64,000 nucleotides of DNA from Minisyncoccia bacterium. GTDB lineage: Bacteria > Patescibacteriota > Minisyncoccia > Phycocordibacterales > UBA918. A model generated the notes under the pieces. That model saw only the letters and a program-made list of their open reading frames with translations. It did not search any database and was not told the DNA's origin. Location: assembly GCA_046598345.1 (NCBI GenBank), contig JBKJIT010000003.1, forward strand, positions 156,549 to 220,548, written 5' to 3'. Below are positions 2,218-46,562 of the stretch, piece by piece (the stretch's first letter is position 1; every line of letters starts with the position of its first letter). Made by a program: the position numbers and the translations under genes.

Positions 2218-2219
2218 TG

Positions 2220-2292
2220 TCCGCCCGCTTGGACTTGAACCAAGGACCACCGAGGTATAAGCTCGGCGCTCTACCAACTGAGCTACAGGCGG
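2220..2292 (-). tRNA. tRNA-Ile with anticodon UAU (decodes AUA)
   Basis: the reverse complement folds as a canonical 73-nt cloverleaf: acceptor CCGCCTG/CGGGCGG with U6-G67, D-arm GCTC-AGTTGGTA-GAGC, anticodon stem CCGAG/CTCGG, loop CTTATAC (U33, A37), T-arm CTTGG-TTCAAGT-CCAAG, discriminator A; CCA is not encoded. Confidence 0.75.
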
Positions 2293-7563: not shown

Positions 7564-7721
7564 GGTGCACCTCCCTTAGGGTTGTCAGTCTCGCATTACC
7601 ATACAACATTTTATGCTTACTCGAAAGAGACTGGCCGTGAAGCCGTAGGAGGTTGGTTTCTGATGAAAAGCGGGTGATTTTCTCTTAAGTTTCTTTTATA
7701 CCGTGAAAGGTGTCGTATACT

Positions 7722-9108: not shown

Positions 9109-9642
9109 CTAGTAAAATTTTGCTTCGTACTCAAGCTTCGACATAACCCGCACTAGGCCTGTATCTTCGAAGCTTGAATGATTGTGGTAACCCCACGCCC
9201 CGTTTTCAGTAAACGTAAAACTCCACGCCCCGCCTTTTTTAATGTCTTTGCAGGAATCAAATGAGCTTCCTTTGCAGTCGCTCCTATTTTCCACCGGATA
9301 GAGACTGTGGCTCGGGTGATTGTTTGAAGCAACCCACATATCTTCACCACTAGTATTCATAAACTGTACTGTCCCACCCGTAACAATGGTCACCTCCTTT
9401 GGAATGAATGATTTGCCATCGTATACGACGAGGGCACTTTCAGGGTACACCGGCTTTGGAAGTTCGTAGACTGGGCCGTCATCTTTCCTAATAGTCTCGC
9501 TTGAAACAGCCCGTTGAATTGTTTTTTCTCCTTCCATCTCAGCAACCGCTTCCTCTGGCGCTGCAGCCATCTTGGGTTGTAAGTAATAATAGCCCCCGTA
9601 CACCGCCGCTCCTAAAACTAGGAAAAATAGTATTGCTTTCAT
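9109..9642 (-). CDS. secreted or membrane-anchored protein, cupredoxin-like by eye
   Basis: MKAILFFLVLGAAVYGGYYYL anchor; beta-rich segment EVTIVTGGTVQFMNTSGEDMWVASNNHPSHS; start taken at the internal ATG 9642 rather than the track's 9717. Confidence 0.45.
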   Translation of the reverse strand: MKAILFFLVLGAAVYGGYYYLQPKMAAAPEEAVAEMEGEKTIQRAVSSETIRKDDGPVYELPKPVYPESALVVYDGKSFIPKEVTIVTGGTVQFMNTSGEDMWVASNNHPSHSLYPVENRSDCKGSSFDSCKDIKKGGAWSFTFTENGAWGYHNHSSFEDTGLVRVMSKLEYEAKFY

Positions 9643-9769
9643 ATTTGCGATCCTACAACGAAATTTCCGTTTTGTATAGTGGCCCTGGTAGTTACCGAAA
9701 ATGATAGTTCTAAACATGCGTTTGAATCTATGCTATTCTGGGTCGCATTCTCATGTATATCTGGGATAT

Positions 9770-9890
9770 GGAGAGTTGGCTGAGTGGATCAAATTGTATG
9801 GGACATAATTTGATCTGACTGAAAGGAAGTGGACGAACTTGTTCGACCACGTAAAGCCACCTTGAAATGAACAATGGAGAGTTGGCTGAG
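9770..9890 (+). repeat. two extra copies of the first 15-18 nt of tRNA-Ser (GGAGAGTTGGCTGAG...), at 9770-9787 and 9876-9890
   Basis: the string (AT)GGAGAGTTGGCTGAG occurs three times at 9768, 9874 and 9991; only the third continues into a complete tRNA; copy 2 is followed by tRNA-like hairpins and ends ...GCGGTCTCC, so it may be a pseudo-tRNA. Confidence 0.55.
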
Positions 9891-9992
9891 CTGCGTGAAG
9901 AAGAAACTGCTTTCTTCTGAACCGGTACTTGTACCGGACCACTCAGTCAACAAGCCGCGCAAGCGGTCTCCATATGAACGAAGTGAATATAT

Positions 9993-10078
9993 GGAGAGTT
10001 GGCTGAGTGGTCGAAAGCACCTCACTGCTAACGAGGCAGGGTCAAAAGCCCTCGCGAGTTCGAATCTCGCACTCTCCG
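9993..10078 (+). tRNA. tRNA-Ser(GCU), type II with long variable arm
   Basis: acceptor GGAGAGT/ACTCTCC, D-arm GCT...AGC, anticodon loop CTGCTAA, variable arm CAGGGTCAAAAGCCCTCG, T-arm GCGAG-TTCGAAT-CTCGC, discriminator G; A31xC39 mismatch noted. Confidence 0.8.
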
Positions 10079-10111
10079 CCCAAGAAACCAGTTATCGGCA
10101 TAAACCGACAC

Positions 10112-10558
10112 ATGGAAATAAAAATTGAGAAAGGATATATATCAATAGTCTCGCCAAAACTCACGTGGGTGTGTGGGCTTTGGGGTGGTGCACCGAAACT
10201 TGCCCGAGCTGCTGCGTTCTTTCCTTTTATCATTTTTCGCGCGGAAGGAGAAAAAGTGCCGTGGGTCATTAATCACGAACGTATTCACTTTCGCCAGCAA
10301 CTTGAAACAGCCTTTGTGGGTTTGATTATGTGGTCCATCATTGAAACCTTGTATGCACTAATTGTATTAAGGAAAAGTCTTAAAGAGGCATACCTGTGGC
10401 GTTCATCGGAACAGGAGGCGTATCGAAATCAGCAAGATTTTCAGTATCTTGATAACCGACATGTATGGGCACAGTTCAAGTATGTTAAAGACAAGAGAGT
10501 ATTTAACTTAGGAAATCCAGGAGAGATTATTTTCACCGACGACCCAGATACCCTCTGA
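10112..10558 (+). CDS. hypothetical protein with HExxH motif (HERIH), possibly a small metal-dependent hydrolase
   Basis: the track ORF from 10007 overlaps the tRNA; the first ATG after the tRNA (10112) is chosen. Confidence 0.5.
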   Translation: MEIKIEKGYISIVSPKLTWVCGLWGGAPKLARAAAFFPFIIFRAEGEKVPWVINHERIHFRQQLETAFVGLIMWSIIETLYALIVLRKSLKEAYLWRSSEQEAYRNQQDFQYLDNRHVWAQFKYVKDKRVFNLGNPGEIIFTDDPDTL

Positions 10559-30827: not shown

Positions 30828-30848
30828 CTTGTTGCGGGGCCCGGAATC
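30826..30848 (-). repeat. isolated copy of the 3' end of tRNA-fMet (TCGATTCCGGGCCCCGCAACAAG in minus sense)
   Basis: cttgttgcggggcccggaatcga at 30826-30848 repeats the sequence at 30994-31016; the real tRNA lies about 150 nt away. Confidence 0.6.
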
Positions 30849-30967
30849 GACATCGAATCACTAGTTCACTTCGTTCATAAGTGTTCGTTAGCTCGGCTCA
30901 CTCATTTGACATTAGGAATAGTCAAATTGAGTTCCGCATGTTCGATTCCTGAGCACAAGAAACGAAA

Positions 30968-30990
30968 ACGCCAGCAAAAGCTGGCATTTT
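30968..30990. terminator. hairpin gccagcaaaagctggc with flanking A and T runs, terminator for minus-strand tRNA-fMet
   Basis: hairpin 10 nt after the tRNA 3' end in minus sense. Confidence 0.5.
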
Positions 30991-30998
30991 CTCTCTTG

Positions 30999-31069
30999 TT
31001 GCGGGGCCCGGAATCGAACCGGGGTCTGGAGGTTATGAGCCTCCCGAGGTACCTCTCCTCTACCCCGCG
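30999..31069 (-). tRNA. initiator tRNA-fMet (CAU)
   Basis: reverse complement CGCGGGGTAGAGGAGAGGTACCTCGGGAGGCTCATAACCTCCAGACCCCGGTTCGATTCCGGGCCCCGCAA is very close to E. coli tRNA-fMet; C1xA72 mismatch and A11-U24 pair (initiator hallmarks); anticodon loop CTCATAA; only 2 of the 3 G-C pairs at 29-31/39-41. Confidence 0.8.
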
Positions 31070-31876: not shown

Positions 31877-31950
31877 GTCGGCGTAGCTCAGTTGGTTAGA
31901 GCATCTCACTCATAAAGAGAAGGTCGGAAGTTCAACTCTTCCCGTCGACA
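31877..31950 (+). tRNA. elongator-type tRNA with CAU anticodon (Met, or Ile2 if lysidinylated)
   Basis: acceptor GTCGGCG/CGTCGAC (G1-C72 paired), D-arm GCTC-AGTTGGTTA-GAGC (C11-G24), loop CTCATAA, T-arm GGAAG-TTCAACT-CTTCC, discriminator A. Confidence 0.8.
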
Positions 31951-31954
31951 CTAG

Positions 31955-31992
31955 CACACAAAAAGCTGGATATCCGTCCAGCTTTTTGTGTG
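31955..31992 (+). terminator. terminator hairpin cacacaaaaagctgga-tatccg-tccagctttttgtgtg
   Basis: 16-bp stem immediately after the tRNA. Confidence 0.65.
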
Positions 31993-31997
31993 TCTCT

Positions 31998-32021
31998 GTA
32001 AGTCGACGGGAAGAGTTGAAG
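31998..32021. repeat. inverted copy of the tRNA-Met 3' end (gtcgacgggaagagttgaa is the reverse complement of ttcaactcttcccgtcgac); a direct partial copy caactcttcccgtc lies at about 32117-32130
   Basis: read directly from sequence. Confidence 0.55.
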
Positions 32022-32181
32022 AGAGCGAGTATATCGCACGGAGTGAAACGAGTACGATTCGAGCGACGGGGCAGCGAGTTCTTAATATTTTGAAGTATGA
32101 AAAATATTTAGAACTGGCGCCAACTCTTCCCGTCTCCGGCCTTCATCTAATCCGCATAAGAGCCTGTGTCATAATGGTCAT

Positions 32182-34352: not shown

Positions 34353-35009
34353 ATGCCCATACAAAAGATTGTACAATCAGATTTTTTTAAAACATGGAGT
34401 CATGGCATGGCGTACATTTTGGGATTTTTTGCAGCAGACGGAAGTATAACGAAGACAAAAAGAAATACTCATTTTATTTCGTTTACTTCTGCCGATAGAG
34501 AGATTTTATCCGCCATACAAAGATTGATGAAGTCTAATCATAAATTATCCGAACGAAAATCTAAGACCGGTTGTGTCTATCGTTTCCAAATTGGTAGCAA
34601 AGTCATTTTTAATGACCTCATTGCACTTGGTTTTAGTAAACGCAAATCAACTCGTATGCTCATGCCTAATATCCCCAATCAATACATTCCAGATTTCATT
34701 CGGGGTTATTTTGATGGTGATGGAAATGTTTGGATTGGTTATATGAATAAACACAGAGAAAGGCAGACAAAAGTAATCCAAGTCGCATTTACAAGCGGAA
34801 GTAAAAAATTTCTTGAAACGCTTTTATCTCTCTTGCGAGAGAGAGGGATACGAGGTGGCTCACTTTACTCATCAAAGACAAAGAATTTTTCTCGACTTTC
34901 CTTAAGTACTTTAGATGCTTTGAAACTGAAGGGAATCATGTATAATGGGCAACCGAAGCTCTATTTGAAAAGAAAAAAGCTTCGCTTTGATACGTATAAA
35001 TCAATGTAA
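34353..35009 (+). CDS. LAGLIDADG homing endonuclease, double-motif type, free-standing immediately upstream of an intron-containing tRNA
   Basis: AYILGFFAADGSI and FIRGYFDGDGNV, two LAGLIDADG motifs about 100 aa apart; the stop codon lies 2 nt before the tRNA 5' end. Confidence 0.85.
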   Translation: MPIQKIVQSDFFKTWSHGMAYILGFFAADGSITKTKRNTHFISFTSADREILSAIQRLMKSNHKLSERKSKTGCVYRFQIGSKVIFNDLIALGFSKRKSTRMLMPNIPNQYIPDFIRGYFDGDGNVWIGYMNKHRERQTKVIQVAFTSGSKKFLETLLSLLRERGIRGGSLYSSKTKNFSRLSLSTLDALKLKGIMYNGQPKLYLKRKKLRFDTYKSM

Positions 35010-35011
35010 CT

Positions 35012-35307
35012 GCGGTGGTAGCTCAACTGGTTAGAGCACCCGCCTGTAGACGTGCAGCTTTCTTTCCGAAAGGGGGATTGAAACTTTCCGGGATAACGGT
35101 GAAGGCTAAGTTTGCCATTTGGCGAATATGCGAATACCGTGGGAACCTTATACACAAAAACACATAGTATAAGGGCGCCGTAGAGACTAGATACCGGGAT
35201 ATCTAAAAGTTTGAAAAAACTCATGATAAAGATATAGTCCACGCCACTATGAAAATAGTGGAAGCAGTGCACGCGGGAGGTTGCGGGTTCGAGTCCCGTC
35301 CGCCGCG
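35012..35307 (+). tRNA. tRNA-Asp(GUC) interrupted by a 222-nt group I intron between anticodon positions 35 and 36
   Basis: exons 35012..35047 and 35270..35307 join to GCGGTGGTAGCTCAACTGGTTAGAGCACCCGCCTGTCACGCGGGAGGTTGCGGGTTCGAGTCCCGTCCGCCGCG plus discriminator G. This matches E. coli tRNA-Asp closely (loop CTGTCAC, G73, C38, G10); 5' exon ends in U, intron ends in G. Confidence 0.8.
35048..35269 (+). mobile_element. group I intron (small, ORF-less) in tRNA-Asp
   Basis: internal guide GTGCAG at intron nt 5-10: CAG pairs the exon CUG(U.G) to form P1 with a U.G wobble at the splice site, and GTG pairs the 3' exon CAC (P10). An R-like element tagagactag lies at 35181-35190 and an exact S element aagatatagtcc at 35229-35240; a P9-like hairpin ccactat-gaaa-atagtgg precedes the terminal G at 35269. 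Confidence 0.75.
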
Positions 35308-35342
35308 CAGTTAGTAAAAGTCGGCCTTGTGCCGATTTTTTC

Positions 35343-35452
35343 GTGCGCGTCAGGGACTCGAAGAGGTTGCCAGCTATTTGTGACCGAAGGAAACAAATAG
35401 CGACAACCTGTACTGAACATGTAATGTTCGAGTCCCGTCCGCCGCGCAGTTA
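35343..35452 (+). repeat. family-A element L1: an inverted tRNA-Gln-like 3' piece, then GTTGCCAG plus hairpin plus core CGACAACCTGTACTGAACATGTAATGTTCGAGTCCC, ending in an exact copy of the tRNA-Asp 3' end (35426-35452)
   Basis: 35366-35436 aligns with 46480-46540 across a roughly 70-nt homologous span; the last 27 nt equal tRNA-Asp positions 53-73 plus CAGTTA. Confidence 0.6.
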
Positions 35453-35457
35453 AATAA

Positions 35458-35493
35458 ACCTAAAAACCACAGTCTAAGGACTGTGGTTTTTAG
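35458..35493 (+). terminator. terminator hairpin cctaaaaaccacagtc-ctta-gactgtggtttttagg
   Basis: perfect 16-bp stem; followed by hairpin gaacacaaactgctttgtgttc (35500-35521). Confidence 0.6.
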
Positions 35494-35654
35494 GTTTAGA
35501 ACACAAACTGCTTTGTGTTCGTATCTAACTGTGAGCTAGAGTCATGTTTTTGCTACACAAAATGCAAAATAGACGAGGCCGGGTCGAGAGTGCTTAAGAG
35601 CAAAGCGAATTAGCAACTCCTGACCAGTACCCAGCGAAAGGGATTTGAAAAGAC

Positions 35655-46329: not shown

Positions 46330-46549
46330 CATTGCCAGTTCGTCTAATGGTGGCCAGAAATTAATGAGCGCTGCGATTATAATTTCTGAGTCCGTCTGAT
46401 TTTCTTCCTCACAGAAGAAAATCAGACGTTTGGGAGGTCCTGAGTATTGGGGCTGAAATGATATGGGGTATTATTTCAGGACGTTGCCAGATATTTATAA
46501 AAAATATCGACAACGTGTACTGATCATGTAATGATCGAGTCCCTTACCA
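46330..46549 (+). repeat. split pseudo-copy of tRNA-Gln: the first 21 nt (46330-46351) and a 3' piece inside family-A element L2 (46480-46549, core CGACAACGTGTACTGATCATGTAATGATCGAGTCCC)
   Basis: cattgccagttcgtctaatggt occurs at 46329 and 46560; 46480-46540 aligns with 35366-35436. Confidence 0.55.
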
Positions 46550-46562
46550 GAACAAAAAATAT

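Follow-up and report, generated by a model that had tools for sequence, protein, structure and literature searches.

In a 64,000-nucleotide (nt) stretch of DNA from a Minisyncoccia bacterium (hereafter, the window), the 5' end of a tRNA-Ser(GCU) gene occurs three times in close succession, and only the last occurrence belongs to a complete tRNA. As judged from sequence comparison, the two upstream copies are not decaying tRNA genes; each heads a folded RNA cassette of ~100 bases (unit 1 and unit 2) that is conserved in distant Patescibacteria. The feature is genuine, and the most fitting description is that of two conserved cassettes, with a putative function, in the presumed leader of tRNA-Ser. 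The explanation that we favour, with a probability of about 0.42, is that units 1 and 2 are structured leader cassettes of Patescibacteria tRNA-Ser genes, spread by recombination, whose RNA masks itself. No description of such tRNA-Ser leader cassettes was found in the literature.

Two cassettes upstream of tRNA-Ser(GCU)

The motif GGAGAGTTGGCTGAG is found exactly three times on the + strand of the window, with starts at 9770, 9876 and 9993 (9768, 9874 and 9991 if the preceding AT is included) and a copy-to-copy spacing of 106 nt and then 117 nt. The number of copies expected by chance is 0.13, and none of 100 shuffled sequences reached three; the triplication reported in a preliminary description of this DNA is thus confirmed. 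Copies 1 and 3 are identical over 22 nt, ATATGGAGAGTTGGCTGAGTGG (9766-9787 and 9989-10010), including four leader bases, while the identity of copy 2 with the other copies amounts to 17 nt. Copy 3 is identified as tRNA-Ser(GCU) by ARAGORN (9992-10082) and is also recognized by the Rfam tRNA model (55.9 bits at 9993-10078; gathering threshold, 29 bits). It is the sole tRNA among the three copies, as previously proposed. Units 1 and 2 gave no credible match to the Rfam tRNA model even at E<=10, and ARAGORN with thresholds relaxed to 60-70%, or with introns allowed, produced only spurious non-Ser calls. The possibility that the triplication is an assembly artefact is excluded by a separately assembled Logan contig (L241), which is identical to the window across 3447 nt, and by the presence of homologous units in other genomes.

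A key feature absent from the preliminary description is that each unit contains an inverted (antisense) copy of the tRNA 5' end. A unit begins with tRNA nt 1-15/18 repeated in direct orientation (the mimic) and continues with at least one hairpin; the tRNA 5' end then reappears in inverted form (the anti strand), and a leader of 10-25 nt separates the unit from the tRNA or from the next unit. The features of the locus are:

9643-9769, + strand: upstream intergenic stretch, between a divergent gene (9109-9642, - strand) and unit 1
9770-9875, + strand: unit 1 as a whole, a type A cassette (model R1, 84.7 bits)
9770-9787, + strand: unit 1 mimic, which reproduces tRNA-Ser nt 1-18 exactly; identity ends at the D-loop GG
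9787-9815, + strand: unit 1 hairpin P2, GATCAAATT / AATTTGATC (inverted repeat and fold)
9829-9850, + strand: unit 1 hairpin P3, GTGGACGAAC-TT-GTTCGACCAC, the conserved core of type A
9855-9861, + strand: unit 1 closing strand AGCCACC, antisense to GGTGGCT (helix 1 of the fold and of the family alignment)
9876-9890, + strand: unit 2 mimic, which reproduces tRNA-Ser nt 1-15 exactly (sequence identity)
9899-9918, + strand: type B block of unit 2, a hairpin with a CUGC loop, AGAAGAAA-CTGC-TTTCTTCT (inverted repeat and fold)
9922-9937, + strand: unit 2 second hairpin, CCGGTA-CTTG-TACCGG (fold)
9937-9951, + strand: anti part 1 of unit 2, GACCACTCAGTCAAC, complementary to tRNA nt 6-20 (inverted-repeat search)
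9954-9967, + strand: unit 2 hairpin GCCGC-GCAA-GCGGT, which interrupts the antisense strand (fold)
9967-9975, + strand: unit 2 anti part 2, TCTCCATAT, antisense to tRNA -4..+5 across the RNase P site (inverted-repeat search)
9976-9992, + strand: AU-rich short leader GAACGAAGTGAATATAT before the tRNA, similar to the ..ACGAAGTATATT tail of type B units
9993-10082, + strand: genuine tRNA-Ser(GCU) (ARAGORN, Rfam)

Units 1 and 2 are alike only in their 5' motif. They are mutually unrelated, yet each has homologs in other classes of Patescibacteria. The interior of unit 1, initially regarded as a set of unrelated hairpins, turned out to belong to a conserved, covarying family located upstream of other Patescibacteria tRNA-Ser genes. 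A leave-one-out model of type A (R2), built without the window and without the tRNA-identical segment, matches 9787-9863 with 58 bits (E 1.5e-13), and this is its sole real match in 64 kb. In the type A model alignment, 93% of cells pair, compared with 31-46% in slid controls, and 13 base pairs are compensatory; none of 500 shuffles equalled the observed values. For P2 alone, the family alignment contains compensatory changes in 7 of 10 pairs, with 98.7% of cells paired. The 5' arm of P3 is similar to the tRNA D-loop GTGGTCGAA, and its 3' arm (9842-9850) is an exact complement of 10007-10015 (9 nt, 100%). The conserved type A segment GTTCGACC is the complement of the tRNA-Ser D-loop sequence GGTCGAA and, taken together with the closing strand, is antisense to roughly tRNA nt 1-24. 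To match the closing strand of unit 1, a tRNA-Ser would need G at nt 7, as found in several relatives; the local gene carries T at that position. Relatives with G, A or T at nt 7 carry the matching C, T or A in their closing strand. The antisense match of unit 1 to the tRNA is weaker than that of unit 2 (z = -2.9). A short open reading frame (ORF) that follows the GGAGG motif of type A was not conserved upon by-eye comparison.

Unit 2 (9876-9992) has a predicted fold of -43.6 kcal/mol (z = -4.5), and none of 200 shuffles was as stable. The hairpins previously described in copy 2 are indeed present, including a CUGC hairpin with an AAA-CUGC-UUU apex and an 8-bp stem. The view of this copy as a decayed tRNA-like gene was not supported, however: the CUGC hairpin is conserved elsewhere, and also occurs apart from tRNA-Ser copies. 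In the window it is found at 35497 and 34202 as well, away from any copy of tRNA-Ser, and the CUGC block occurs upstream of tRNA-Ser genes with GCU, GGA and CGA anticodons. Hence, it is not an anticodon-arm remnant of this particular tRNA. In the type B hairpin family, 8 of 13 pairs are compensatory in an alignment that was not fitted to a model. Unit 2, whose membership in type B is weaker than that of unit 1 in type A, shares with the type B group the 5' copy, the invariant AAA-CUGC-UUU hairpin apex, and the ..ACGAAGT..ATAT tail. The latter, ..ACGAAGT(A/G)..ATAT, lies directly before the tRNA and takes the form shown above for the window leader and, in L051, L060 and L096, that of ACGAAGTATATT. 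The second hairpin of unit 2 showed no conservation in the relatives aligned.

Complementarity between unit 2 and the tRNA is extensive. Anti part 1 pairs over 15 nt with 9998-10012 and over 13 nt with unit 1, with duplex energies of -29.1 (tRNA), -25.1 (unit 1) and -18.2 (the 5' end of unit 2 itself). Anti part 2, 9 nt long, is a 100% complement of 9989-9997 and also pairs with the start of unit 1 (9766-9774); its helix with tRNA -4..+5 forms in the predicted equilibrium fold of the window precursor. As a whole, the 3' part of unit 2 pairs with tRNA -4..+30 at -41.4 kcal/mol, while shuffles yield -21.4 +/- 3.5 and none of 500 was as low. With the other five tRNAs of the window, values of -17 to -25 kcal/mol were obtained.

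When 9600-10250 was searched against Rfam 15 at E<=10, neither unit matched any family, T-box or riboswitch, and a search of 18 related loci at the gathering threshold retrieved tRNAs only and no family for the units. A known structured RNA, which had been considered as an alternative identity for copies 1 and 2, was therefore not found among Rfam families. A group I intron or an intron-bearing tRNA was also discarded: the units are too small, lack an Rfam match, and yielded nothing Ser-like in ARAGORN with introns allowed. The earlier opinion that the array is not CRISPR-like (clustered regularly interspaced short palindromic repeats) was borne out: the repeat is the tRNA's own 5' end and measures 15-22 nt, compared with about 23-47 nt in CRISPR arrays, and the spacers, of 88-102 nt, are conserved, structured sequences. 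Among the selected ORFs scanned, the only Cas-like signal was a weak Cas3-like C-terminal match inside RecG.

The last four nt of the upstream intergenic stretch, ATAT (9766-9769), recur before the tRNA. A promoter is presumably located in 9643-9769; a sigma-70 consensus scan of the + strand upstream of the array detected no site, and promoter and terminator scans were uninformative there. Consensus scans for promoters and terminators at three proteobacterial loci were likewise uninformative. Domain scans of nearby ORFs identified RecG, malic enzyme, PilM/PilB and LigA, as carried by a bacterial chromosome, and homologs of a local protein are labelled Patescibacteria and Paceibacterota. Downstream of tRNA-Ser lies a gene (10103-10558, + strand) for a 151-amino-acid HExxH protein with an INHERIH motif and no Pfam match. 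In every ortholog examined (L242-L252), the HExxH gene is found 20-60 nt downstream of a tRNA-Ser gene, whose anticodon varies (GCU, UGA, GGA), as do the upstream genes. The HExxH gene seems to travel together with the tRNA-Ser 3' end; L251 retains just a 3' tRNA remnant.

Relatives of the cassettes and their distribution

To survey related loci, one genome per species was considered, and two tRNA-Ser-type 5' motifs 100-130 nt apart were searched for. At least 120 loci were obtained; among the 120 loci listed, 38 have at least one non-tRNA ("orphan") copy, almost always upstream of a real tRNA-Ser. For 34 of the 38 units compared, the predicted fold of the sense strand is more stable than that of its complement (Wilcoxon p = 5e-7), a bias that points to conserved structure at the RNA level on the tRNA strand. 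Our initial view that a long-range helix closing the 5' copy might be a general rule (36/38 units) was dropped, as helices of ~7 bp are expected by chance.

Unit 1 can be aligned with units of Saccharibacteria, Paceibacteria and metagenomic contigs. Type A loci are those of the window, L026, L050, L089, L090, L211 and L237, and type A matches are confined to positions 10-26 nt upstream of tRNA-Ser or of another unit. Between genomes, sequence identity in type A interiors (68%) is on a par with that in the neighbouring tRNA bodies (67%). A metagenome scan with the 16-mer GGRCGAACTYGTTCGA proved poorly targeted, since only one true type A unit (L211) was present among the 120 matches listed; the unit of L237 was found after that scan.

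Relevant aspects of the distribution of both types can be summarized as follows:

(i). Both types occur in Saccharibacteria and Paceibacteria. Type A adjoins tRNA-Ser genes with GCU, GGA, CGA and ACU anticodons, and type B those with GCU, GGA and CGA anticodons.

(ii). The order of units is not constant: the window has A-B, L050 has B-A, and L026 has B-A-A-A.

(iii). Orphan copies track their own tRNA. The 15-mers are identical in 44 of 44 orphan-tRNA pairs, and orphans follow variable tRNA positions, as illustrated by L237 (GGAAAG with GGAAAG).

(iv). Comparison of orthologous loci, located via protein homologs of the gene that follows tRNA-Ser, revealed that 8 of 8 distinct loci are devoid of units. 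All contain tRNA-Ser, represented in L251 by the 3' remnant only. Exact-protein look-ups of both flanking genes, with the start codons chosen, retrieved no matches.

(v). A protein-coding neighbour shared by type A/B loci was not found.

The range of isoacceptors, the changes in order, the absence from orthologous loci, the mismatch at nt 7 and the tracking of the tRNA by orphan copies argue that cassettes move between tRNA-Ser genes. As tRNA-Ser isoacceptors share a 5' end of ~18 nt, this segment may act as recombination homology.

Certain loci deserve separate mention. Tandem arrays of tRNA-Ser(GCU) and duplicated leader units are found in L012 (1808-2043) and L120 (667-920), both of betaproteobacterial type, directly after the same upstream gene (…LHKAFGLEQPA*). 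Three tRNA-Ser genes with an ACU anticodon were detected by ARAGORN (L211, 9203-9290; L237, 110-197 and 2597-2685), each with a leader cassette upstream. Bacteria normally read AGY codons with GCU, and an ACU tRNA-Ser is unusual.

Partial copies at other tRNA genes

Among 135 non-Ser tRNAs of the fetched loci, upstream 5'-end copies were detected at two genes only, a Patescibacteria tRNA-Val(UAC) in L033 and the tRNA-Gln(CUG) of the window. In the former (~7577-7649, reverse strand), the first 16 nt are copied 72 nt upstream. In the latter, a perfect 20-nt copy of the 5' end lies 230 nt upstream (46333-46562, + strand) and is followed by three hairpins and by a T-arm and 3' acceptor strand in decayed copy, before which the motif CGACAACGTGTACTGATCATGTAATG is found. 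This upstream unit has no significant antisense to the tRNA and looks like a disrupted tRNA copy.

The remaining partial copies involve 3' ends. The tRNA-Asp(GUC) gene (35012-35308, + strand) is split at anticodon position 35/36 by a group I intron of 222 nt (Rfam Intron_gpI, 51.4 bits at 35052-35261), and is called by ARAGORN only if introns are allowed. Insertion at 35/36 has been described as typical of Patescibacteria (PMC13011429); this trait and the labels of the protein homologs make that phylum the most likely affiliation of the genome. A free-standing gene for a LAGLIDADG homing endonuclease (34353-35009, + strand; LAGLIDADG_3, E 1e-17) is located immediately upstream. The 3' side of tRNA-Asp (35309-35530, + strand) contains a terminator, an inverted 3'-end copy, a direct 27-nt copy of the 3' end (35427-35453), a second terminator and the CUGC hairpin (35497-35528). 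A set in the opposite orientation (~34299-34202, - strand) is made of a 3'-end copy, a terminator and a CUGC hairpin, so that both sets bracket the LAGLIDADG gene and tRNA-Asp. One tRNA-Met gene (31877-31951) is followed by a terminator, an inverted 3'-end copy (~32003-32022) and a direct partial copy (~32122-32137), all within 31952-32140 (+ strand). Another tRNA-Met gene (30998-31069, - strand) has its 3' 22 nt repeated ~170 nt downstream (30830-31019), with a terminator-like hairpin beside each copy. In L211 (8694-9020), two more units are found downstream of tRNA-Ser(GCU), each combining a terminator with two copies of the last 20-23 nt of the tRNA, one inverted and one direct; GCGACAACGGGTACTGAACATGTAGTG, a motif shared with the window, stands before each direct copy. 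A further tRNA gene of the window, at 2219-2292 (- strand), is a tRNA-Ile with a UAU anticodon according to ARAGORN. The UAU anticodon is uncommon in bacteria.

The contrast drawn beforehand between the tRNA-Ser array and the 3'-end duplications at other tRNAs of the window is correct, as the tRNA-Ser repeat covers the 5' end (nt -4..+18). Building blocks are nonetheless shared: the CUGC hairpin and GTACTGAACATGTAATG recur beside partial tRNA copies in the window and also in L211. Partial copies with shared blocks at other tRNAs support the view that tRNA genes of this lineage are hotspots for small recombining modules, and the presence of similar blocks beside other tRNAs of the same genome also favours recombination-spread, self-masking cassettes upstream of tRNA-Ser.

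Interpretation and comparison with known systems

According to the explanation that we favour, each cassette, flanked by the ~18-nt sequence common to all tRNA-Ser isoacceptors, would spread by copying between tRNA-Ser genes through homologous recombination or gene conversion, and changes in copy number would result from unequal crossing-over at the ~18-nt repeat. The direct-inverted-direct layout probably originated by template-switch or fold-back duplication; template switching can create RNA hairpins, with perfect stems in one step (PMC8794818). The cassettes would be transcribed together with the tRNA; a consensus scan found no terminator between the units and tRNA-Ser. In the transcript, pairing of mimic and anti strand would close each cassette upon itself, thus keeping both strands out of the acceptor and D arms of the tRNA. 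Selection for self-masking would account for the conserved, covarying structure on the tRNA strand. Removal of the cassette might be carried out by RNase P or RNase E, and RNase P would probably cut at G1 of each copy: the -1 base is a pyrimidine in 31 of 36 orphan copies, and in 33 of 36 tRNAs. A benefit for the host would not be required.

Several considerations weigh against this explanation. Co-transcription and processing are assumed. The loci were sampled with a pattern that requires two 5' motifs of identical type 100-130 nt apart, and the counts are lower bounds. The closing helix of mimic and anti strand beats a shuffle length control in just 6 of 38 units, a low figure that can be attributed to the G/U-rich composition of the 5' segment. 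Furthermore, in 10 of 10 type A/B units the anti strand favours the real tRNA over the mimic. The assignment of unit 2 to type B relies on the common layout and on a weak score in a leave-one-out model (R3; 17.6 bits, E 0.03) that two other sites in the window surpass. The patchy distribution could equally mean repeated loss, and neither recombination machinery nor a donor molecule was identified. Lastly, the compensatory changes could stem from template switching instead of selection (PMC8794818). This last point and that on the closing helix hold equally for the switch considered next.

The main rival, which we regard as unlikely, holds that the cassettes are a natural cis-acting device that gates the maturation of tRNA-Ser. 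Pairing of the anti strand with the upstream mimic would leave the tRNA free to fold and to be cut by RNase P, while pairing with the tRNA 5' end and leader would mask the cleavage site and the acceptor strand; the balance would be set by some signal or by transcription kinetics. To our knowledge, gating of tRNA maturation by such a switch has so far been demonstrated only with synthetic constructs; should this rival be right, it would provide the first example in nature of a switch that operates on tRNA processing. RNase P is known to be blocked, in vitro as well as in E. coli, when a synthetic switch masks leader positions -1 to -4 (PMC7897497), and anti part 2 of unit 2 extends its complementarity across the RNase P site. 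Among 36 units compared, 24 (p = 0.006, non-overlapping windows), including all ten type A/B units mentioned above, are predicted to form a more stable duplex between anti strand and real tRNA than between anti strand and mimic; the outcome for those ten fits a switch better than pure self-masking. The anti strand of L090, for instance, is the exact reverse complement of tRNA nt 10-24, where the mimic diverges. For unit 2 plus tRNA, the strand-swapped fold is predicted to lie 20.6 kcal/mol below the modular fold (shuffled leaders give a gap of 6.9 +/- 2.6 kcal/mol, and 0/100 reach 20.6), and the probability of the acceptor stem drops from 0.89 to 0; shuffled leaders, however, also reduce it, to a mean of 0.32. 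Conservation of type A at the level of the tRNA body also speaks for a switch, but the absence of units from all eight orthologous loci and their variable copy number and order are odd for a needed regulator. In addition, a stricter test, limited to tRNA positions past the mimic identity, was only marginal (3/36 units significant; combined p = 0.03), no ligand or sensor element was identified, and equilibrium folds ignore the order of transcription, which favours pairing between mimic and anti strand. We are also doubtful that a three-strand switch for pre-tRNA-Ser, made of mimic, antisense strand and tRNA 5' end, is widespread in Patescibacteria and has analogues in alpha- and betaproteobacterial tRNA-Ser leaders.

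A neutral origin is improbable in our estimation. In that case, recent local duplications or template switches at a palindrome-rich gene with high transcription would have left the units as by-products, which gene conversion would keep uniform while they slowly decay in the absence of selection at the RNA level. Proteobacterial loci conform to this picture, as their spacer is a near-identical copy of the native leader, and L012, L046, L120, L103 and L038 consist of simple tandem arrays in which the older copies are decaying; identity breakpoints vary by lineage (nt 18, 23, 27, 28-30, 36-37), and template switching is able to produce perfect stems in a single step. In the window and other type A/B loci, however, the upstream sequence is unlike the spacer, and the two unrelated units of the window each have homologs in other classes of Patescibacteria. 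Neither the seven compensatory pairs of P2, which is not tRNA-derived, nor the sense-strand specificity of the structure, which depends on G.U pairs, are anticipated by neutrality, and even in the older unit of L012, an A:U pair of the helix between the 5' copy and its complement has been replaced by G:C, a compensatory change. It is quite improbable that the units are remnants of integrative elements, that is, attachment (att) repeats of phages or of integrative and conjugative elements (ICEs), or miniature non-autonomous elements that depend on a homing endonuclease or site-specific recombinase for their mobility. Direct repeats flanking each insert, a patchy distribution, the 3'-end repeats at other tRNAs of the window, the LAGLIDADG gene beside tRNA-Asp, and the location of GTACTGAACATGTAATG next to incomplete tRNA copies in L211 and at the tRNA-Asp and tRNA-Gln genes speak in favour of such an origin. 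Against it, the tRNA is repeated at its 5' and not its 3' end, only 88-102 nt without any ORF lie between repeats, the breakpoints are not fixed, and the structure is specific to the RNA sense strand. No recombinase domain was detected in the scanned ORFs near tRNA-Ser, and three pattern scans of 2.9 million viral contigs (plasmids were not searched) gave 0 matches. The view that copy 2, and perhaps copy 1, is a tRNA-Ser pseudogene decaying after tandem duplication is largely refuted and retains very little probability. The element order of unit 2 is tRNA-like, its TCTCC-A end can pair with GGAGA, its D-loop-like GAAAGC and its CTGCT are loosely similar to tRNA-Ser(GCU), and the unit upstream of tRNA-Gln does resemble a disrupted tRNA copy. 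However, neither tRNA models nor relaxed ARAGORN made a Ser-like call on either unit, identity to the tRNA stops abruptly at nt 18 (unit 1) or nt 15 (unit 2), and the CUGC hairpin also exists apart from tRNA-Ser copies. The interiors covary and are conserved in metagenome-assembled genomes of Saccharibacteria and Paceibacteria, with the rest of each unit aligning with families that are not tRNAs.

If the units are indeed recombination-spread, self-masking cassettes, they would represent an undescribed class of small cassettes on tRNA genes of bacteria with reduced genomes, which copy the gene's own 5' end both ways and persist as folded leader RNAs. They would provide a concrete case of RNA structure conserved for harmlessness rather than for a host function, and would account for the "tRNA fragments" that annotation pipelines see in such genomes. 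As its isoacceptors have 18 nt at the 5' end in common, tRNA-Ser would act as a landing pad for mobile sequences. The type A model is a ready tool to search Patescibacteria genomes.

The nearest documented case is the tyrT-tyrV locus of E. coli, which contains three 178-nt repeats, 95% identical; the tRNA-proximal one includes the last 19 nt of tyrV and overlaps rttR, whose RNA, RttR, is co-transcribed and processed. Both systems have tandem units beside a tRNA with a partial copy of a tRNA end. In tyrT-tyrV, however, the units lie on the 3' side, copy the 3' end, are paralogous and have no inverted copy, whereas those of the window lie on the 5' side, belong to two unrelated families and also carry the tRNA end in inverted form; their conservation extends to distant genomes. 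Near-identical paralogous units are absent from the window but are found in L012, L038, L046 and L120. Integration of phages, ICEs and their miniature derivatives, the cis-mobilizable elements (CIMEs), leaves direct repeats of tRNA 3' ends. Such att duplications also involve a partial tRNA copy flanking an insert, arrays that grow by accretion and a patchy distribution, while the window differs in the end that is copied (5'), in the gene-less insert of ~90 nt, in the lack of a recombinase or attP among the features found, and in covariation at the RNA level. In E. coli, 3'ETS-leuZ is an RNA derived from the spacer of a tRNA operon that acts in trans as a sponge and is not known to copy the tRNA sequence; it resembles the cassettes in that the latter, too, would be released from the non-tRNA part of a pre-tRNA transcript, although the window units have no known trans target. 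The "tandem inversion duplication" reportedly observed in Salmonella also invites comparison.

Template-switch or fold-back duplications (PMC8794818) share with the cassettes the direct-inverted-direct layout and the generation of perfect stems in a single event; they address only origin, however, and leave the conservation of P2 and the spread among isoacceptors unexplained. The synthetic RNase P riboswitch (PMC7897497) places a helix over positions -1 to -4, and unit 2 of the window carries a complement of -4..+5. The former was engineered to respond to a ligand, whereas the cassette of the window has no known sensor and its pairing with the tRNA is predicted.

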